Below, piece after piece: positions 12,281-64,000 of a DNA stretch of 64,000 nt; position 1 is the first letter of the stretch, and every line of letters starts with the position of its first letter. The stretch is from the NCBI GenBank assembly GCA_002774875.1, contig PCYM01000001.1:1096-65095 (forward strand), written 5' to 3'. A program made the position numbers and the translations under genes. The notes below the pieces were generated by a model. That model saw only the letters and a list, made by a program, of their open reading frames with translations. It ran no database searches and was not told where the DNA came from. The DNA comes from Candidatus Uhrbacteria bacterium CG10_big_fil_rev_8_21_14_0_10_50_16. Its GTDB lineage: Bacteria > Patescibacteriota > Patescibacteriia > UBA9934 > UBA11717.

Positions 12281-12450
12281 AGGGATTGGTTACAAATTGC
12301 GAATGAATGAGGGACGGTCTGAGTATACCGTATGGAGCGTGGTTTGTGGCAAACCTATGGATACGTGACGAAATTCTTTTCTCTGATTCTTTGCGTGTGT
12401 CCGCATTGCGTGTGCCATAAGACCTTCCGTCAATACTCCGCGTCGCTGCA

Positions 12451-12558
12451 GATGTGTGCCGATCGTGGCGATTCATTCTGAATCTTCGATCGGCTACACG
12501 GCTTCGCTCTACGGAAACCCTGCGTTTATGCCGGGGTCTTATTGTCGTACTCGTGATG
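12451..12558. repeat. structured repeat element, copy 1 (nested hairpins, no downstream cargo)
   Basis: By eye it is about 80% identical to 22002-22118. GCCGATCG (12459-12466) and CGATCGGC (12488-12495) flank a perfect inner hairpin GATTCA-TTC-TGAATC (12471-12485). A third segment GCCGGGG (12531-12537) can pair alternatively with the middle segment. Confidence 0.5.
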
Positions 12559-21912: not shown

Positions 21913-22001
21913 ACAGGCTTGCCTGCAAGCTCTCCTGGTCGTCATTGCGCGTTTCACGAAGCAATCTATTTATTCTTTCTCCCTCCTTTTTGTTTCGCCA
22001 A

Positions 22002-22118
22002 AGATGTGTGCCAATTGTGGCGATTCATGTTGAATCTTCAATTGGCTACACGGCTTCGCTCTACAGAAGGGCTTCGTTTATGCCAAGGTCTGTACGGCGT
22101 ACTCGTGGGGACACGCTG
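22002..22118. repeat. structured repeat element, copy 2 (followed by a GC-rich small ORF)
   Basis: It has the same architecture as copy 1, but both 6-nt palindromes changed concordantly (CGATCG to CAATTG) and the third pairing segment co-varies (GCCGGGG to GCCAAGG). Confidence 0.5.
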
Positions 22119-22187
22119 AGGGACGACTACAACACCGGGGACCCCGATTCCGTCCGCGTGCGCTTTACGTACGCCGGACGTGCCTAT

Positions 22188-22409
22188 CGGATGTGGAGTC
22201 TCCCGGGTAGGCTCTCCGTTTGGGAGGGGAAGGGCACTTACACGGACACGGGACCTACCGGCTGCATCAACTCCGCCGTGTCCGACGTGGGTGTCATGAA
22301 GTGGCTAGATCACGAGGAGCCGGATGAAATCCCGGAGACCCAGCCGGAGTGGCAGGTTCGCTGCAAGGTGGCGATCGAGAGCCTGGCCGCCGTCCTCGGC
22401 GTCCGCTGA
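22188..22409 (+). CDS. possible small GC-rich cargo ORF downstream of repeat copy 2
   Basis: This is the C-terminal part of track ORF 21900..22409, from MWSLPGRLSVWEGKG onward. It is about 63% GC in a 50% GC background, and a terminator-like hairpin follows at about 22425-22460. The start is uncertain. Confidence 0.25.
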   Translation, partial: RMWSLPGRLSVWEGKGTYTDTGPTGCINSAVSDVGVMKWLDHEEPDEIPETQPEWQVRCKVAIESLAAVLGVR

Positions 22410-22505
22410 ACTGCCGCCTGAAGGCGCGACCGCAAAGGTCGTCTGCCTACAGGCGGCCTTTGTGTTATTGACCAAAATGCTCCTTTGACCTACAATCTCG
22501 GCATT

Positions 22506-42428: not shown

Positions 42429-43721
42429 GTGAGCTCAAGCCGGCGACGGCCTGAGCTCGCTCTACCCCCCCACGCGGTCTTCGGGCTGCACTTCTACGAC
42501 CGGCGCCTGGAACCTCAGGACGCCGGCCTCGTACGTTCATGCGCAACGCAGAAAGAGCGGAAGATGAAGTCGGACATTGCAGATGTAAACTTGCAGAAGT
42601 TGTATGAGGCACTGGAAGCAGCGCTGAGAAACGCGGGTGTTGCAGACAAGATTTCCGTGGCAACGTCGTTGAGGGCGTTTGTGGATACTGTGGACGAATT
42701 GGCGGTCGAGCGTGGCCAGTTACTTGCTGCGCTGGAGCACGCCACCACCGATTCGGTTACGGGACTGCTGAGATCTGACCAATGGCGTCAGCAACTCGCC
42801 ATGGCGCTCAGGCAGGCATTGGGAGAAGCGGCGATCGTGCCCATCCTCGATGGTATGTTCCCGCTTGCGGCGGCCCGGATGGTGGGGTTAAAGGATGTGG
42901 TCAGAAGTGTCGTCCTTGCGACGTTTGACGTTCGTGCGTTGGACTATACCAACGCGCTGCTAGGCTATGCCGCGGGCAGCGAGATGCTGACGCTGTGTGC
43001 ACAGACGGCGGCGACGGTGTTGGACGAGTTCCTCTCCTCCTACGGGATGCAGCGGAGAACCAGTGTTCGCGACCCTCTGTGGCTGTGTTCACTCACACGG
43101 ACCGGCGGCGATGAATTCCGTGCGGTCTTGGTTGGTCAGGCGGCCACGCGTTGGCGCGACGTGCGCGACGGACTGTTCATGCGTCTGAGCGAGGAAGAAG
43201 TGCCGGGGCTCGACATCCCGCCCGCGATGGCATCCGGTGCCATGTCCATGCACGTCTTGCTCTGGTACGTGGGCGCGTTCTATCGGTGGCGGGGCCTGTC
43301 TCTGCCCACCGACAGGGAGGAGATCATCACGCTCGCCATTCAACTGTGGTGTGCCTTCACGGAGGCGCGCGCAGATGCACAGCGGGTGGTGGAATACGGT
43401 CTCCTGTTTGCCGATGCGTGGGACGATGACCCTGTAAAGCGCGAGCGGTTCGATCGGTGGATGTCCACCAAGTTGATGGCCTCGGCCTTCAATGGACGAA
43501 CTCTGGATGAGGTGCACAACCTGTGCCGAAGCGCGTCCATGTGTCTGAAGGCAGACGACACCAAGGGTGCCAAGGCGGTGTTCGTGCACGATCACGATGA
43601 TCGTATGCGTGTTCACTTCAACATCCTCCTGGCCAAGGCGCGGGCGCTGCAAGAAGAAAACATCCGTCTCCGGCTCGAGATCTTCGTGATCTCCAATGAG
43701 TTCGAGTTTCCTATCCCCTAA
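42429..43721 (+). CDS. GGDEF-domain protein (putative diguanylate cyclase) with an uncharacterised C-terminal extension of about 180 aa, on a GC-rich segment
   Basis: D-SVTGLLRSDQWRQQL matches the D.LTGL.NR entry motif of GGDEF domains. FDVRALDYTNALLGYAAGSEML corresponds to the D.D.FK..ND..GH..GD block, and LTRTGGDEFRAVLVG is an intact GGDEF active site. The segment 42230-43720 is about 60-70% GC against a local background of about 50%. The start is uncertain; ATG 42564 (MKSDIADV) is an alternative. Confidence 0.6.
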   Translation: MSSSRRRPELALPPHAVFGLHFYDRRLEPQDAGLVRSCATQKERKMKSDIADVNLQKLYEALEAALRNAGVADKISVATSLRAFVDTVDELAVERGQLLAALEHATTDSVTGLLRSDQWRQQLAMALRQALGEAAIVPILDGMFPLAAARMVGLKDVVRSVVLATFDVRALDYTNALLGYAAGSEMLTLCAQTAATVLDEFLSSYGMQRRTSVRDPLWLCSLTRTGGDEFRAVLVGQAATRWRDVRDGLFMRLSEEEVPGLDIPPAMASGAMSMHVLLWYVGAFYRWRGLSLPTDREEIITLAIQLWCAFTEARADAQRVVEYGLLFADAWDDDPVKRERFDRWMSTKLMASAFNGRTLDEVHNLCRSASMCLKADDTKGAKAVFVHDHDDRMRVHFNILLAKARALQEENIRLRLEIFVISNEFEFPIP

Positions 43722-52345: not shown

Positions 52346-52585
52346 AGTTTTACATTCTTGAAACCAAGAACCAAAAATTAAAATTAATTTGGCGATATTT
52401 TGCTACCGCAAAATTAAAAAACTTTTCATTACATCGCACAACGTGCCGCGGCACGTTAGCCAACGAGCAAAGCGATGTTGGCTAACATTCCAACATATAC
52501 AATATCTAAACAGGGTAAAATGTACACGAAGTGCTTACCACTGGCAAACATGGGTGGAGGCATGCGGAGGTACGGAGCAAGCCGT

Positions 52586-52640
52586 AACCGCATACGCAGT
52601 GTTAGTTGATGTATTCCTTTTCTTTTGTTCCGCCATCGGT
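52586..52640. repeat. copy of the terminator/promoter module repeat (family also at 60936-61006 and 62350-62472)
   Basis: A shared core ...CAGTGTTAG(T/C)TGATGTATTCCTTTTCTTTTGTTCCGCCATCGG... is present, containing a short GC hairpin. Confidence 0.5.
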
Positions 52641-52831
52641 ATCGCAACCGTGGCAATCGATGCGAACAACTGTTTCTGACATCTCTTCCTCCTTCGATCC
52701 CACTATTTTGGGGGATTCAGAGCTTGTTTGGCGTGCTAATTTTTTCAAGAATATAGCCTTTTGTCAATGCATGAGCTTTGTGACCGGAGCTTCATTGTTT
52801 CTTCATCAATTCTCCGCTACACTCACACGGT

Positions 52832-59606: not shown

Positions 59607-59931
59607 TTTGAGCCTCCACCTGGTTATTTGGCGTAGGGAAGTCGGATAGTGTCTAAAAGACGGTGATGTGCGTCGGACCGGCGAGCGAGAAGTGTCACGT
59701 TTAAGACTCTACCCAGTCGGCAAATACGGCACAACACCTATCGCGGAGCTCACTTGCGGATACCACGGTATCACGCGGCTCTAAGCTCTACGCCACAATG
59801 TCCAAATAATGACAAATGGAGGCACTGGGAGTATACCTGAGGCTGGCCTGGACTGTCATATTTGGCGGGTTTGTGGGGTGTGAGAGAGACTTGTCGAACA
59901 AATCCAAACATGTTATAGTCTCGCTGTTCCA

Positions 59932-59995
59932 ACAACATTCCGAGCTCGCTTCCGCCAATGTTCCTTTTGGGCGGACAGGCAGTGGTAGAGCAGTT
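59932..59995 (+). other. partial duplicate or pseudogene of the tRNA-Asn 5' portion (candidate att-type scar)
   Basis: ACAACATTCCGAG (59932-59944) and CAGTGGTAGAGCAGTT (59980-59995) are identical to 60288-60300 and 60306-60321 of tRNA-Asn with its 5' flank. A hairpin-containing 35-nt segment separates them. Confidence 0.45.
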
Positions 59996-60057
59996 TCAGC
60001 CGTAGGCTGACCCGCCTATCAAGTTTTATTCAGTGGCGGGGACTGTACGGATACCGT

Positions 60058-60303
60058 ATGTACACTGTGTATGTTTTGCGAAGTCTTACATCCGGGAAAC
60101 GATATATTGGTTATACGGCAAAGGCTGTTCAAGAAAGACTCTTGGACCACCATAGCGGTACGAATCAATGGACAAGGGCTCACAGACCCTTTGAAATAAT
60201 TCATTGCGAAACGTACCAGGACAAGAAATTCGCCATACAACGTGAACGCTTTTTAAAAAGTGGAAGCGGAAGGCGGTGGTTGGACGACAACATTCCGAGG
60301 TAG
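60058..60303 (+). CDS. GIY-YIG nuclease-domain protein (small stand-alone URI-domain type)
   Basis: YTVYVLRSLTSGKRYIGYT...RLLDHHSG...W.R...PFEIIHCETY...A...ER.LK matches the GIY-YIG fold. Its stop overlaps the first nucleotides of tRNA-Asn. Confidence 0.65.
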   Translation: MYTVYVLRSLTSGKRYIGYTAKAVQERLLDHHSGTNQWTRAHRPFEIIHCETYQDKKFAIQRERFLKSGSGRRWLDDNIPR

Positions 60304-60368
60304 CTCAGTGGTAGAGCAGTTGACTGTTAATCAATTGGTCGTGGGTTCGAGCCCCACCCTCGGAGCCA
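60294..60368 (+). tRNA. tRNA-Asn (anticodon GTT)
   Basis: The cloverleaf folds by hand. The acceptor is TCCGAGG/CCTCGGA, the D stem GCTC/GAGC, the anticodon loop CTGTTAA, and the T arm GTGGG-TTCGAGC-CCCAC. CCA is encoded. Confidence 0.85.
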
Positions 60369-60465
60369 ACAAAAAGCCTCAGTTTTACTGAGGTTTTTTG
60401 TTTGACGCAACTGGGCTTCAGAACCCGTATGTGATAAAATATTCACGAACCTTTTAATTACTACT

Positions 60466-61056
60466 ATGTCTGAACACCCTGAAAGAGCTCCTGACATTGT
60501 TCGGGAACAAAGTAAGAAGGAACGGTACGAACTCACTTCGGCCAACGGTGAAGTTATCGGATCTGTGGAAGCAGAATATGGGACTATATTGGGTGATGAT
60601 ATCGATTTGACTTATAATGCCCACGCTTTTGACGATCCATCAAATATTGTGAGGTTGCAGCGCCTGACAGTTGAGTCCGCTGATGGAGACAAGGTGGATA
60701 TTTTTGACCTCCTTAAAGCTGATACGAGCAAGGTTTTAATAATCAATGACTATAAATATGTCGAATGTTCTCACGAGGGAGTTGTGTATATAGTCAAGCC
60801 GAGCTCATTATTGCGACTATTGACAACTCTTCATGAACTTGGTCATTTGGAGCAAATAGTTGATGAGAAAACCGCTTCCGCAATAGAGATGCGAAAACTA
60901 AATGCGACGCAAGTAGGGTTGGTGGAGAAGAACGAGTTAGCTGATGTATTCCTTTTCTTTTTTGGGCTATCGCCCAATTGTTTTAAAAAATTTTCAAATT
61001 TCTTTTCGCAGCACATCCCGATAAAAAGAAGAGCCGCCCACCAGATGAGCCAGTAG
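60466..61056 (+). CDS. hypothetical protein with an HExxH (HELGH) motif, possibly an ImmA/IrrE-like metallopeptidase
   Basis: It is AT-rich and contains LTTLHELGHLEQ. The last 40 or so codons are encoded by repeat sequences (60936-61073), so the true C-terminus is doubtful. Confidence 0.35.
   Translation: MSEHPERAPDIVREQSKKERYELTSANGEVIGSVEAEYGTILGDDIDLTYNAHAFDDPSNIVRLQRLTVESADGDKVDIFDLLKADTSKVLIINDYKYVECSHEGVVYIVKPSSLLRLLTTLHELGHLEQIVDEKTASAIEMRKLNATQVGLVEKNELADVFLFFFGLSPNCFKKFSNFFSQHIPIKRRAAHQMSQ
60936..61006. repeat. terminator/promoter module repeat, copy A
   Basis: The sequence is GTTAGCTGATGTATTCCTTTTCTTTTTTGGGCTATCGCCCAATTGTTTTAAAAAATTTTCAAATTTCTTT. It matches 62392-62472 in inverted orientation and 52595-52640. 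Confidence 0.5.
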
Positions 61057-61073
61057 GCGGCTCGTGGTGGACG
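61028..61073 (-). terminator. conserved 46-nt hairpin terminator (minus strand), copy 1
   Basis: GCCGCCCACCA...TGGTGGACGG forms a hairpin, followed on the minus strand by TCTTCTTTTTAT. It is nearly identical to 61782-61827. Confidence 0.5.
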
Positions 61074-61084
61074 GCTAGGTTGGA

Positions 61085-61597
61085 TTAGTCGTCATCCTCG
61101 TTGTATGTGTTGCTCACCGGCATCAACATGAAGCTCTCGAGCCGCGAGAGCTCTTCGTAGGAAGCCTCATCGGTGGGCCACTCCGGATCTTCCTTGCCGG
61201 TACGCAGCCACCGGCTGAGAGTGTGTTCAAGATGGTACAGCATCATGCGCTCACCATCGCCCTTGCAGTTGTACAGGTACCACCGCCAGCCGGTGCTAAA
61301 GACGGACAGAAGCTCCTGCATCTCCAGCAGCCAGTTCATCAGCCGGGTGATGGCCAGGTGGCGCGAAGCGATGTTGTCGTCCAGATCCTGCGCGAGCGAC
61401 TCGACGATGAAATCCGGGGCGTTGCCCTCGCCGGTGATCGTGGGGGTGAAGTCCCACGTGCCCTCGGCGAGCTCGCGCCTCGGGTTGAGAGGCGTGAGCC
61501 GAACGTAGAGATGACTCTCACCTTCCACCAGACCGGCGAAGGCGCTCTTGTCGGGATTGCCGAGCGTGATGACTCGACCACTTTCGATGGCGCTCAT
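61085..61597 (-). CDS. hypothetical acidic protein (GC-rich cargo gene)
   Basis: This 170 aa ORF is about 60% GC. GGAGGTG lies 4 nt upstream of the ATG, and a conserved terminator sits 10 nt after the stop. Plus-strand ORFs over the same DNA look like low-complexity antisense frames. Confidence 0.4.
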   Translation of the reverse strand: MSAIESGRVITLGNPDKSAFAGLVEGESHLYVRLTPLNPRRELAEGTWDFTPTITGEGNAPDFIVESLAQDLDDNIASRHLAITRLMNWLLEMQELLSVFSTGWRWYLYNCKGDGERMMLYHLEHTLSRWLRTGKEDPEWPTDEASYEELSRLESFMLMPVSNTYNEDDD

Positions 61598-61781
61598 TTA
61601 CACCTCCATGAGGAGACGTGAGTGTTCGGCTGTACCCGCCGTGGGTTGCGTTCCGTAAAAGGAAACGACGCTAAAATATAGTCCATTTTATAAAAGTAGT
61701 CAATAGAAGCTCGCCAAAAAAGGCATTTTTTGCGAATTTATGTACACTTGACGCACGGCGGCGGCGCGACGAAAAGAAATT

Positions 61782-61827
61782 AAGAGCCGCCCACCAGATG
61801 AGCCGGTAGACGACTCGTGGTGGGCGG
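61782..61827 (-). terminator. conserved 46-nt hairpin terminator (minus strand), copy 2
   Basis: CCGCCCACCA-N21-TGGTGGGCGG is a perfect 10-bp stem, followed on the minus strand by TCTTAATTTCTTTTCG. Confidence 0.5.
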
Positions 61828-61842
61828 TACAGATGGAGTGCT

Positions 61843-62262
61843 TCACTCCGCGAGTTCGACACTCCGAACCATGAAGGGACGGGATCCGGTGTAATGCTGT
61901 TCTGCGAGACTCGCCACCTGGCACAGCACGTTGACCCTCGTACCCTCCTGGAGCATCGCACTGGAGGGATCGCTGCCCAGATGCTTCTCGAACCGCGGAG
62001 GGTAGATCGGAGCAGGATCTCGCCAGTAAGTGAGTGCTGCCAGCGAGTCTGGATGATGCGGATGGTGTCGTCTGATGACCGCCTTGACGGTCTCCAGATC
62101 GAGCTCGACGATGATCGTGTATGTCTCCGGAATGGGTTCGAAGATCTGGAAGCCGAAGACCGAGAACCCGGATCTTGCCGGATATGTCTTCACACCGATG
62201 ATCTTCCCAGGGATGGTGACCTTCGAGCCGCTGGCCTGAGGCGCGAATCTTGGGGTCTGCAT
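61843..62262 (-). CDS. hypothetical protein (GC-rich cargo gene)
   Basis: The start is at MQTPRFAPQ, with AGGAGG 6 nt upstream. A sigma70-like promoter, TTGACT-16-TATATT, lies on the minus strand at 62323-62350. The conserved terminator follows the stop. Confidence 0.4.
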   Translation of the reverse strand: MQTPRFAPQASGSKVTIPGKIIGVKTYPARSGFSVFGFQIFEPIPETYTIIVELDLETVKAVIRRHHPHHPDSLAALTYWRDPAPIYPPRFEKHLGSDPSSAMLQEGTRVNVLCQVASLAEQHYTGSRPFMVRSVELAE

Positions 62263-62322
62263 ACGACCTCCTGTTCTGAATGTCACGGCTGTCCCTGCCG
62301 TAGGGGTCGAAAGCGACATTAA

Positions 62323-62350
62323 AATATACTCTATTCAGAAAAAAAGTCAA
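62323..62350 (-). promoter_or_regulatory. sigma70-like promoter (TTGACT-N16-TATATT) inside repeat copy B, driving the 61843..62262 gene
   Basis: On the minus strand the sequence reads TTGACTTTTTTTCTGAATAGAGTATATTTTA. Confidence 0.45.
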
Positions 62351-62472
62351 TGGTCGCCCAATATCTCGGACATATGTATAATGAAAGAAATTTGAAAATT
62401 TTTCAAAACAAGTCCCGCCGATGGCGGAACAAAAGAAAAGGAATACATCAGCTAACACTGGCTATGCGGTTC
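62350..62472. repeat. terminator/promoter module repeat, copy B (inverted relative to copy A)
   Basis: On the minus strand the sequence reads ...CGCATAGCCAGTGTTAGCTGATGTATTCCTTTTCTTTTGTTCCGCCATCGGCGGGACTTGTTTTGAAAAATTTTCAAATTTCTTTC..., followed by the promoter. Confidence 0.5.
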
Positions 62473-62567
62473 CGTTTCACTACACCCATATTTGCTTTCA
62501 CTTCGCTACAGCAAACATCGCATAGCCAGAAACGTTTTCAGAAGTTTCAAGACTTCAACGTCGTTAC

Positions 62568-62834
62568 GTGAATATAAGTGAAAGAAACGCCGTTGCACGC
62601 TCACTGCAGTGGATGAGGGAGCTGAAGCGACACAATATTAATTGCATGCAACCATTAGCAATCGATGATGATATTCGCATGCTGCTTGAGGGAGCCATAC
62701 AGGAGCTTGGCGACGAAGAGTTGGTCGCAGAAGCAAAAAGGATTTTAGAAAGCGATAGCATTACTTTTCAGGAATTCTCCCATTTCGCATTAAGGGTACA
62801 TCGTGCCGATCAGTCTGTCGTTAGTAATCCCTAA
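62568..62834 (+). CDS. hypothetical small protein
   Basis: This 88 aa ORF is AT-rich and helical. It is followed by a conserved box and terminator at 62904-62964. Confidence 0.35.
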   Translation: MNISERNAVARSLQWMRELKRHNINCMQPLAIDDDIRMLLEGAIQELGDEELVAEAKRILESDSITFQEFSHFALRVHRADQSVVSNP

Positions 62835-62903
62835 TACAATCATTGAACAAGTTTATTTAATTGGATGGCTATCAATTCAACTTTATTTCATTCAACAGTT
62901 CTG

Positions 62904-62964
62904 ACCCGTTCAGTATTCGGAACCAATGGGACTCGAACTAGCAATGGTTCGAGTTTTGTTTTAG
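62904..62964 (+). terminator. conserved box (ACCCGTTCAGTATTCGGAACCAA) plus rho-independent terminator
   Basis: The box lies at 62904-62926. The hairpin is ACTCGAAC-TAGCAATG-GTTCGAGTTTTGTTTT. Confidence 0.45.
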
Positions 62965-62990
62965 ACTATAGAAGAAATTAGCTCTGATTT

Positions 62991-63413
62991 ATGGAAAAAC
63001 CCGACCGTCTTTATCATGGCAGCACAAAACTTATAGAGGGGTATATCGAGCCAAGAAAAGCACTTGATGAAATGAGTGAAAATAACTCTCAGCTAGCCGT
63101 TTATGCCACAGATAGATTTGAGGTTGCCACCGGTATGTCTTTAACGGGGGATAATTGGTCATTCGCTGATTTTGATGAACCAGACTTCAAGGTGCTTTTT
63201 GCGGAGGAACCGCCTGAATCAGATCAGATGAGATATGTTTATGAATTGTCTTCAGAAACATTTGAGCGCGATCCTGAGAATAAATCTCAATGGATCTCAT
63301 TTGAAAAAGTGAAAATTTTGGAGATGCACAAATTCAGGACCCAAGATTTAAGTCACCTATGGAGAATGGCAACGAAAGAGGAGGTGGATGCTCATACGCC
63401 AAAGAATCGGTAA
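62991..63413 (+). CDS. hypothetical protein
   Basis: This 140 aa ORF is AT-rich and belongs to no family I recognise. It is followed by the second copy of the conserved box and terminator. Confidence 0.4.
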   Translation: MEKPDRLYHGSTKLIEGYIEPRKALDEMSENNSQLAVYATDRFEVATGMSLTGDNWSFADFDEPDFKVLFAEEPPESDQMRYVYELSSETFERDPENKSQWISFEKVKILEMHKFRTQDLSHLWRMATKEEVDAHTPKNR

Positions 63414-63473
63414 TTGTCATTTTACATACCTTAGTACCGCTGATTCAAAGTCAGACCATCTCACCAATCTGAA

Positions 63474-63540
63474 ACCCGTCCAGTATTCGGAGCCAAGAGA
63501 AAACCCGATCGCAAACACGGTCGGTTTTCTTTTTGTTGTG
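63474..63540 (+). terminator. conserved box (ACCCGTCCAGTATTCGGAGCCAA) plus rho-independent terminator
   Basis: The box lies at 63474-63496. The hairpin is AAACCCGATCG-CAAACA-CGGTCGGTTTTCTTTTTGTTG. Confidence 0.45.
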
Positions 63541-63707
63541 GTAAACTGGGGATGTTGAAATACAAGACTTGACCCTTGGCTTATAATAGGGATTATGAAC
63601 CAGATCCTTTGTGACGTGCGGGATGGCGCCTCTTACAAAATGAACGAGCGAGTCAATGCCTATTTCAAAGGTGACTGGCTTGAAAAGTATTTGCTTGGTA
63701 ACGAAGT

Positions 63708-64000
63708 ATGAGGGTTTTTCGAGTTGAGGTTCCAAATCGACCAATCATCAAAATCCGAGACTCGTTACGGCCAAAAGAATACACCATGATGGCAAGTGGA
63801 TTTGTTGCAAATCAAGCAAAGCGAGATCATGAACAACTTTTTGAGCAAGTAAGGATTGAGGGATTTTCACAAAAGCCAGACCGCCTTACCTCGATCTTTG
63901 CTTTTGAAGATCTTGAAACTGCTCGATGGTTTCAACAAAGCGGACGAATGGAATCAGGTGGCGTATTGACCGAACATGAAGTGACGAGGCTGGATGTACT
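63708..64000 (+). CDS. partial ORF running off the window end (hypothetical)
   Basis: ATG at 63708 opens MRVFRVEVPNRPIIKIRDSLRPKEYTMMASGF..., which stays open to the window end. A 38-codon ORF (63585..63701) lies just upstream. This conflicts with minus-strand track ORF 63451..63744. Confidence 0.3.
   Translation, partial: MRVFRVEVPNRPIIKIRDSLRPKEYTMMASGFVANQAKRDHEQLFEQVRIEGFSQKPDRLTSIFAFEDLETARWFQQSGRMESGGVLTEHEVTRLDV

Follow-up and report, generated by a model that had tools for sequence, protein, structure and literature searches.

A tRNA-Asn-anchored array of box-punctuated small genes, carrying a nested insertion, in a Candidatus Uhrbacteria genome

How did a run of small genes with unrelated products and sharply different base composition come to lie behind a single tRNA-Asn gene in Candidatus Uhrbacteria bacterium CG10_big_fil_rev_8_21_14_0_10_50_16, an organism of the candidate phyla radiation (CPR) with a genome GC content of 49%? 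We analyzed a stretch of 64,000 nt (hereafter the window) from the 330-kb contig PCYM01000001.1 of assembly GCA_002774875.1, and concentrated on its last 4.4 kb, downstream of dnaG and rpoD, where a first-pass annotation made from the letters alone had pointed to a variable, cassette-like hot spot beside the tRNA. The reading we lean towards, and give somewhat better than an even chance, is that this is a tRNA-Asn-anchored array of four separately acquired cassettes, brought in by site-specific recombination with the recombinase acting in trans, into which a mobile insertion later became nested.

The array is bounded by two copies of the tRNA 3′ end. The sequence GGGTTCGAGCCCCACCCTCGGAGCCAA(C/G)AAA at 60343-60373 recurs 6570 bp downstream with 30 of 31 bases the same, and the far copy falls just past the window edge (window-equivalent 66913-66943). 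Positions beyond the edge were read from L001 and L105, two of the comparison contigs and loci labeled L001-L145, which add 5.5-12 kb past the window end (window coordinate = L001 + 48245 = L105 + 56152). The span from the tRNA-Asn to the terminal 27-31-nt copy of its 3′ end is thus 6.57 kb. Between the repeats lie, in order, a 196-amino-acid (aa) open reading frame (ORF) with an "HExxH" motif, two GC-rich genes, ORFs of 88, 140, and 38 aa, a DUF2441-like gene, an ASCH-pyrophosphatase-GrpB fusion, and a 232-aa protein. These resolve into four plus-strand units with unrelated products, mostly single-gene (0.5-2.7 kb, one to three genes each). The last 5 kb of the window matched base for base in at least four independent assemblies (ENA, JGI, and the NCBI record), and the odd composition of the region is therefore not an assembly chimera. 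The parts of the array on which the following argument depends, apart from the first cassette's gene and what interrupts it, are these:

60294-60368, plus strand: tRNA-Asn(GTT), found by ARAGORN and by Rfam at 74 bits, which anchors the array and whose 3′ end ..CTCGGAGCCA forms the left side of the first junction
60369-60465, plus strand: right-of-CCA module R1, with terminator hairpin 60375-60399 and the leader of a 256-aa gene
62895-62925, plus strand: box 1, ..GTTCTGACCCGTTCAGTATTCGGAACCA, closing cassette 1 (box hidden Markov model, HMM, E=4.5e-8)
62926-62990, plus strand: right-of-CCA module R5, with terminator hairpin 62931-62963 and the leader of the 140-aa gene
62991-63413, plus strand: cargo of cassette 2, a 140-aa protein, predicted ORF
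63469-63495, plus strand: box 2, ..CTGAAACCCGTCCAGTATTCGGAGCCA, closing cassette 2
63496-63594, plus strand: right-of-CCA module R3, with terminator 63505-63524 and a promoter-like site
63595-64000, plus strand: start of cassette 3, with a 38-aa ORF (63595-63711) and a DUF2441-like gene running from 63708 off the window
65563-65593 (window-equivalent, past the window edge), plus strand: box 3, diverged, closing cassette 3

Past the window, cassette 3 continues with the ASCH-pyrophosphatase-GrpB fusion up to box 3, and cassette 4 consists of the 232-aa gene.

The element that closes the units, here called the box, had been described in part: the two copies of a 23-nt box reported by the first-pass annotation (62904-62926 and 63474-63496; shuffle expectation 0) were both confirmed, but the real element is ~30-45 nt long and has a third, more diverged copy outside the window, matched at window-equivalent 65572-65594. 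The full box ends in GGAGCCA, which is the terminus of the tRNA-Asn, and its GAGCCA also matches the end of tRNA-Gln; the consensus is (YCCARTT.AC)GGTTCTGAACCCGTYCAGTATTCGGAGCCA. Metagenome contigs were scanned for the exact pattern ACCCGTYCAGTATWCGGARCCA, for which less than one chance match was expected by a rough estimate from an assumed collection size, and 22 loci were recovered, representing 15 further distinct contexts, to which L113 adds one more, having a homologous box behind an intact 256-aa gene. In every context the box stood 19-224 nt after a co-oriented ORF and was followed by a hairpin-and-T terminator and then by the next co-oriented gene, with one to three boxes per locus. 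The ORFs that precede it are unrelated to each other and include NUDIX, PIN, DUF7689, and DUF2441-like proteins, membrane proteins, and many without assignment. Each spacer of the array contains a terminator hairpin, and several also have promoter-like sites (consensus matches only). The box did not occur elsewhere in the window, and 1.28 Mb of control loci gave one weak match (E=4e-4) and one that was non-significant (E=0.27).

Two ideas about the nature of the box were discarded. That it is a decayed tRNA 3′ half was rejected on finding no match to the tRNA model, or to Rfam families, even at E<=10. As a structured RNA it showed no covariation: in 20 copies, none of the predicted pairs had a compensatory change, the sequence being nearly invariant. 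Given both results, a sequence-specific protein site fits the box better than a folded RNA does.

What follows the box appeared to be inherited separately from the box itself. At the junctions, loci were compared over the 32 nt left of the CCA and, separately, over the 70 nt right of it. Where two loci had the same right-hand module, identity was 69-85% right of the CCA but 47-67% left of it, a tRNA end there facing a box; where they had the same box, it was 88-94% left of the CCA and 53-55% right of it, against 48 ± 3 (maximum 58) for the shuffled control of the right side. Specifically, R1 travels with the 256-aa gene and is 76-83% identical to the post-junction sequences of L113, L115, and L134, and its left partner is the tRNA-Asn in the window, a 21-nt tRNA-Gln 3′ fragment in L113, a NUDIX cassette with a box-like end in L115, and in L134 a canonical box. 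R5 is 88% identical over 97 nt to the post-box spacer of L117 and L118, where a different gene follows, and R3 is 77-85% identical to the module after box 3, the two being paralogous over 134 nt. Additionally, L128 has an intron-containing tRNA-Asn whose next 35 nt are identical to those behind the box of L119, the tRNA-Asn of L129 is followed by a terminator that resembles the post-box terminators of L121 and of the window, and the window's terminal tRNA repeat is followed by one that resembles post-box terminators in L122 and L126. Because the left and right sides of the CCA assort independently, the mosaic breakpoint sits at a single position, the CCA end, and genuine tRNA 3′ ends and boxes are interchangeable as left partners.

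The same place holds other genes in relatives. L129/L123 share the dnaG-rpoD-(GIY-YIG remnant)-tRNA-Asn backbone of the window, with RpoD 68% identical, and continue after the tRNA-Asn with 179-aa and 123-aa genes, a box, a 248-aa gene, and a box at the contig end, none of the genes being related to those of the window. In L128/L126 and in L115, too, the tRNA-Asn is followed by box-terminated genes, which together with L129/L123 makes three other lineages. Since the tRNA-Asn loci of relatives hold different box-punctuated genes, the site is a conserved insertion hot spot of variable content, as had been proposed; gene-for-gene conservation, which would have spoken against that proposal, was not found, the cargo of L129/L123 being wholly different. 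A tRNA-Asn downstream of rpoD was seen in other CPR as well. Compared with GTDB representatives, among which the source genome is not included, the window RpoD had a best match of 66% identity. The tRNA-Asn of L128 (11014-11341, minus strand), which ARAGORN misses, contains a group I intron (RF00028, 86.7 bits), in agreement with the position 35/36 introns reported in patescibacterial tRNA-Asn (PMC13011429).

The first cassette of the array is not intact, and its interruption accounts for the GC-rich genes. Its gene and the insertion in it are laid out as follows, X, Y, and W being repeated segments:

60466-60935, plus strand: N-terminal part (~156 codons) of a disrupted 256-aa gene with homologues P0024 and P0025
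60936-61005: left inverted repeat, composed of X (26 nt), a hairpin, and Y (28 nt)
61024-61074, minus strand: terminator of GC-rich gene 1, a 14-bp stem, then TTCTTTTT
61085-61597, minus strand: GC-rich gene 1, 170 aa, acidic, GC content at third codon positions (GC3) 0.81, ribosome-binding site GGAGGTG
61675-61703, minus strand: promoter-like site of gene 1, TTGACT-N17-TATATT, 10/12 matches
61777-61827, minus strand: terminator of GC-rich gene 2, a 14-bp stem and T run
61843-62262, minus strand: GC-rich gene 2, 139 aa, GC3 0.71, ATG after AGGAGG
62323-62350, minus strand: promoter-like site of gene 2, TTGACT-N16-TATATT
62384-62456: right inverted repeat, in the order Y, hairpin, X
62457-62530, plus strand: right-end extension of the insertion, an 18-nt segment W and a hairpin with a 13-bp stem (fold z = -2.7)
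62531-62834, plus strand: C-terminal part of the same 256-aa gene, aligning to residues ~160-256 of P0024/P0025

The "HExxH protein" and the 88-aa ORF, which starts at a GTG at 62568 within the C-terminal part, are two halves of one 256-aa gene. The 196-aa ORF had only four relatives among 5.8 billion clusters; P0024 and P0025, intact homologues of 256 aa with 63-64% identity, each cover both ORFs. DNA homology to the intact gene in L113 ends at 60935-60943 and returns at ~62531, and because it breaks at the first base of the inverted repeat (60936), about 1.6 kb was inserted into the gene. The "196-aa protein" owes its final ~40 residues to read-through into the repeat and on into the terminator of GC-rich gene 1. 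The motif behind the earlier suggestion of an ImmA/IrrE-like protein is real, HELGH being invariant in four of four homologues, but the ORF is an N-terminal fragment and the family assignment found no backing: neither the fragment (E<=0.1) nor intact P0024 (E<=0.05) matched Peptidase_M78 or another Pfam family, PADLOC gave no support for it, and the profile of the 256-aa family had no match in PDB at E<=10. A structure model of the 256-aa protein had a predicted local distance difference test score (pLDDT) of 51, too poor for fold comparison.

Two side observations concern homologues of this gene. In L115 (1625-1722) another GC-rich sequence cuts off the 256-aa homologue, near the contig end and ~25 nt upstream of where the insertion lies in the window, and this may be a recurrent target region. 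In L113 (2070-2262) a ~190-nt insert without ORFs but with GC hairpins stands between the tRNA-Gln and the 21-nt repeat of its 3′ end, adjoining the cassette of the intact 256-aa gene on its upstream side.

The insertion thus comprises the left repeat, the units of GC-rich genes 1 and 2, the right repeat, and the 74-nt extension. The ~70-nt inverted repeat that brackets the GC-rich pair had been missed in the first-pass annotation. Its 26-nt arms are 100% and its 28-nt arms 96% complementary, while the hairpin between them differs between the copies with its pairing kept, and each copy forms a hairpin with a T run oriented to stop transcription that enters the element. The same repeat end, 97% identical, truncates an HAD-like ORF in the unrelated contig L114, and a partial solo copy, which includes segment W, lies at 52583-52639 of the window; for these reasons the element is, or was, mobile. 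No transposase was found inside the 1.6 kb, which contains two orphan ORFs only, neither with a Pfam, PHROG, or PADLOC match. The GC-rich pair accordingly belongs to the nested insertion and not to the cassette array. Several independent assemblies had contig ends at 60948-61006 and 62359-62431, exactly at the two inverted repeats, and also at 59806-60039, near the pseudo-tRNA and GIY-YIG segment described below; these breaks are most likely graph forks at the three-copy repeat. No inversion or presence/absence variant of the GC-rich segment was seen in the contigs of the population.

Around the solo copy, a 26-aa ORF with a strong ribosome-binding site, MSETVVRIDCHGCDTDGGTKEKEYIN, occupies 52583-52679 on the minus strand, and its last 11 codons with the 3′ flank make up the third copy of the X-W part of the repeat (93% over 57 nt). 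The inverted repeat may derive from the 3′ end of such a small CxxC-peptide gene. Contig L145 begins with a join to the 52640-52660 region, most likely also from a graph fork at this repeat.

The composition contrast reported earlier held up for the minus-strand pair, with GC of 0.61 and 0.59 and GC3 of 0.81 and 0.71 against 0.51 ± 0.07 for the long ORFs of the window; the plus-strand ORFs (GC 0.41-0.45) are only mildly AT-rich. Both GC-rich genes follow GC3>GC1>GC2, the pattern of real coding frames. It had also been said that each ORF ends in one of two families of conserved elements, and both repeats are real, but the hairpins are terminators of the minus-strand GC-rich genes, and the 196-aa ORF merely reads into one of them, out of its native frame, through the inverted repeat. 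These two terminators are 88% identical over 51 nt (no shuffle gave two matches), and the promoters and 5′ untranslated regions (UTRs) of the two genes are likewise paralogous. Their proteins had no similarity to each other, and neither has a homologue among 5.8 billion clusters. For gene 1, an HMMER search of 1.8 billion representatives gave only a weak resemblance, in residues 9-81, to sequence joining CARDB repeats in giant surface proteins (E=7e-9).

Other GC-rich ORFs occur in this genome. A third GC3-rich (0.84) orphan lies on the minus strand directly past the terminal tRNA repeat (L001 18815-19288, window-equivalent 67060-67533) and contains an 18-nt in-frame tandem repeat (DNFEDE) whose copy number varies by assembly, so that the protein is 157 or 150 aa long. 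A GC-rich orphan ORF of 109 aa without a Pfam match (22080-22409, in the region 21995-22465) separates secA from an hpf-like gene and has its own terminator; its 113-nt leader is repeated at 12443-12555 with 81% identity. A 430-aa ORF at 42429-43721, also without a Pfam match, reaches a local GC of 0.67 and is foreign in composition. On account of the ORFs at 22080-22409, 42429-43721, and 67060-67533, it is characteristic of this genome to have GC3-rich orphans whose signals are AT-rich and look native.

On the reading we favor, a cassette would have the form of a terminator-promoter spacer, one to three genes, and a box in the 3′UTR ending in GGAGCCA. A recombinase encoded elsewhere would act on the box-spacer junction of an arriving cassette, probably a circle, and recombine it either with the point where the tRNA 3′ end meets its spacer or with the junction between a resident box and its spacer. 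The crossover would fall within or just after the shared GAGCCA, leaving the tRNA intact, and older cassettes would be moved outward by newer ones. The box would be the element-side recognition arm and the crossover core of this trans-acting recombinase, a role as recognition arm that would account for its sequence conservation across unrelated cargo. In a later step, a 1.6-kb non-autonomous element entered the HELGH gene of cassette 1 and split it, bringing two GC3-rich orphans, each with a sigma-70-like promoter and a strong terminator. In the box, the GGTTC..CCC motif is set 5 nt farther away from the junction than its counterpart in the T-arm of the tRNA, a spacing that we take to recall the half-site geometry of attP versus attB, as a likeness only.

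Several observations weigh against this reading. Only 7-10 nt are common to the box and the tRNA end. A Pfam scan of called genes found no recombinase in the array, in 10 kb upstream, or in 12 kb downstream, in line with the earlier remark that no integrase is recognizable; a crude recombinase-motif scan of related loci also returned none, but it missed the known large serine recombinase of L011 and is uninformative. About 13 contigs of the population showed one arrangement, with no empty site, excised circle, or other cassette order, although many contigs end at repeats, hiding alternatives. The nested insertion shows no clean target-site duplication, its flanks AGAACGAGTT and AGAAACGTT both aligning with one ~10-nt stretch of the intact gene without being identical, and its right end runs 74 nt beyond the inverted repeat. 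As all box-linked ORFs are co-oriented with the box, it would be transcribed as a 3′UTR, and a role at the RNA level is possible. Finally, the DUF2441 gene is 91.6% identical in DNA between the window and L011-L015, is followed by unrelated genes of 425 aa and 421 aa, respectively, and then by 84% identity in the 3′UTR with box 3. Such ORF-precise exchanges (the gene after DUF2441, and GC-rich gene 1 versus gene 2) point to homologous recombination in the conserved spacers as an additional or alternative process.

The last two points lead to the best-placed alternative, which we nevertheless consider rather unlikely: that the box is an RNA element of the 3′UTR (for stability, processing, or protein binding, or as an NCCA mimic of a tRNA end), and that the mosaicism arose by ordinary homologous recombination in the spacers, for instance following DNA uptake, without any dedicated recombinase. 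It would suit the constant position of the box, behind a co-oriented ORF and ahead of a terminator, its GAGCCA end resembling encoded tRNA 3′ ends, the ORF-precise replacements between conserved flanks, and the lack of a nearby recombinase. However, the 20 copies had not one compensatory change, and the box resembled neither Rfam families nor the tRNA model. Moreover, the box is limited to one to three copies in islands and is not spread over 3′UTRs genome-wide, and it swaps with genuine partial tRNA 3′ ends, which are footprints of site-specific integration, at one breakpoint position.

A decayed single prophage or integrative and conjugative element that entered once at the tRNA-Asn and lost its integrase, with the internal boxes as spacer duplications, we judge improbable. 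One pair of tRNA 3′-end repeats does enclose the whole 6.57 kb, the paralogy of the modules after boxes 2 and 3 extends over 134 nt, and no integrase is present, all as such a history would have it. Yet the box is kept in at least 15 unrelated contexts from many metagenomes, and the cassettes occur singly elsewhere: the 256-aa gene, together with spacer and box, adjoins tRNA-Gln in L113 and follows a NUDIX cassette in L115, and the DUF2441 module is found in L011-L015. Scans with Pfam, PADLOC, and PHROG found no phage or conjugation genes in the array, and the box, the hairpin, and the inverted repeat had chance matches only, or none, in viral, phage, and plasmid collections.

The earlier proposal that the small genes form one undescribed defense, anti-defense, or toxin-immunity system with the repeats as regulatory punctuation can be set aside as very improbable, for although most proteins here are of no familiar kind and box-terminated islands of other genomes include restriction-modification, PIN, and DUF2779 genes, the small proteins are unrelated cargo of separate cassettes, with different neighbors elsewhere and no co-occurrence when this was looked for, one of the genes is a pseudogene split by an insertion, two sit in that nested mobile insertion, and none had a PADLOC match.

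That PADLOC comparison gave noise-level hits only for the window proteins, from the GIY-YIG protein to PDC-S14 (E=0.0028) and from the 38-aa ORF to Csx1 and CARF (E~0.01), and the 140-aa protein of cassette 2 had no Pfam, PADLOC, PHROG, or PDB match and a structure model with a pLDDT of 45. The idea of a defense hot spot thus fails for the window itself but is borne out in part by box islands elsewhere. In the longer box loci, the genes just upstream are for defense, namely type I restriction-modification in L137, type III in L136/L133, and a ResIII helicase in L124, with a DUF2779 protein in each of these loci; PIN proteins were found in box-terminated islands. In L011 (2949-4543), and also in L012, the gene of a 527-aa large serine recombinase ends at tRNA-Gln(CTG), and the same island contains the DUF2441 gene, the unrelated 421-aa gene, and a box-3-like site 6.9 kb from the recombinase and tRNA-Gln. 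A gene for a type IV secretion system coupling protein lies nearby on a longer contig of this island.

On the 5′ side of the tRNA-Asn, two further features were present where the first-pass annotation had placed them:

59932-59995, plus strand: decayed copy of the tRNA-Asn 5′ part, with 7 nt of upstream flank and about tRNA positions 1-29
60058-60303, plus strand: stand-alone gene for an 81-aa GIY-YIG nuclease domain (PF01541, E=6.4e-13)

The stop codon of the GIY-YIG gene lies inside the tRNA-Asn, its final codons covering the first 10 nt of the tRNA, and in L129 a C-terminal GIY-YIG remnant is joined to the tRNA-Asn in the same manner. The decayed copy, which is broken by a 29-nt hairpin insert (59951-59979), forms the left repeat flanking the GIY-YIG segment, and this suggests that the segment was inserted long ago, 5′ of that tRNA-Asn. 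An origin of the arrangement from a group I intron was rejected, as there was no intron signal within the window, Rfam finding neither an intron nor a tRNA signal in 59932-59995. A separate GIY-YIG ORF follows a box in L124.

The simplest account of the array follows that of other tRNA-seeded genomic islands, such as the tycheposon arrays of Prochlorococcus, which arise by repeated site-specific integration at a tRNA and have partial tRNAs between neighboring elements (bioRxiv 10.1101/2020.12.28.424599). Both are anchored at a tRNA 3′ end and bounded by partial tRNA copies (there also punctuated by them), new units would displace older ones outward, integrase-less remnants are common, and the cargo includes defense and niche genes. 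In contrast to tycheposons, the internal junctions here are a conserved ~30-nt box sharing only the last 7-10 nt of the tRNA, the units are tiny (0.5-2.7 kb) and lack hallmark replication or integration genes, and the host belongs to the CPR.

Integrons and clusters of attC sites lacking integrases (CALINs) are a second point of reference. The attC sites are imperfect palindromes conserved in structure and not in sequence, and integron cassettes are generally promoterless. The earlier description of an integron-like array fits in that unrelated cassettes lie in the same orientation with a recurring end site, proposed insertion at a fixed array head, and no nearby integrase. It does not fit in that the box is conserved in primary sequence and is no attC-like palindrome, the head site is a tRNA 3′ end and not an attI, no IntI lies within 10-12 kb, and the cassettes bear their own promoter-like sites and terminators.

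For the nested element, the comparison is with mobile insertion cassettes (MICs, for example MIC231 of Bacillus cereus) and elements like miniature inverted-repeat transposable elements (MITEs), which are non-autonomous, have terminal inverted repeats, and carry passenger genes. The 1.6-kb insertion likewise has 70-nt inverted repeats at or near its ends, passengers, and no transposase, and interrupts ORFs in two samples. Unlike these elements, its right end has a 74-nt hairpin segment past the repeat, no cognate insertion sequence or transposase is known for it, and its passengers are GC3-rich orphans within duplicated promoter and terminator modules. With regard to large serine recombinase elements, the L011/L012 recombinase that abuts tRNA-Gln, with its box-3-like site 6.9 kb off, is a lead only; unlike such elements, the window array has no large serine recombinase nearby, and no inverted second half-site was recognized to the right of the junction.

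We therefore class the locus with the tRNA-anchored integrative arrays, as a variant from a CPR bacterium that has a nested insertion and whose junction motif can be searched for. A broader view, which we put forward tentatively as possible and no further than that, is that the CPR have an integron-like capture platform in which the 3′ end of tRNA-Asn, sometimes of tRNA-Gln, serves as the attI, the box as the attC, and an unlinked recombinase would move very small, self-expressed cassettes, with restriction-modification and other defense genes among them, between genomes. For annotation, the locus is a warning that two "hypothetical proteins" can be the halves of one disrupted gene and that GC-rich orphans may sit in a nested insertion. 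To our knowledge, few classical mobile elements have been described in the tiny genomes of CPR/Patescibacteria, and the acquisition of accessory and defense genes by these bacteria is poorly understood. The searchable 30-nt junction box offers a handle for cataloguing the flexible gene pool of the CPR and for finding the responsible recombinase, and would permit a test of a tRNA end as the acceptor site of an integron-like array.

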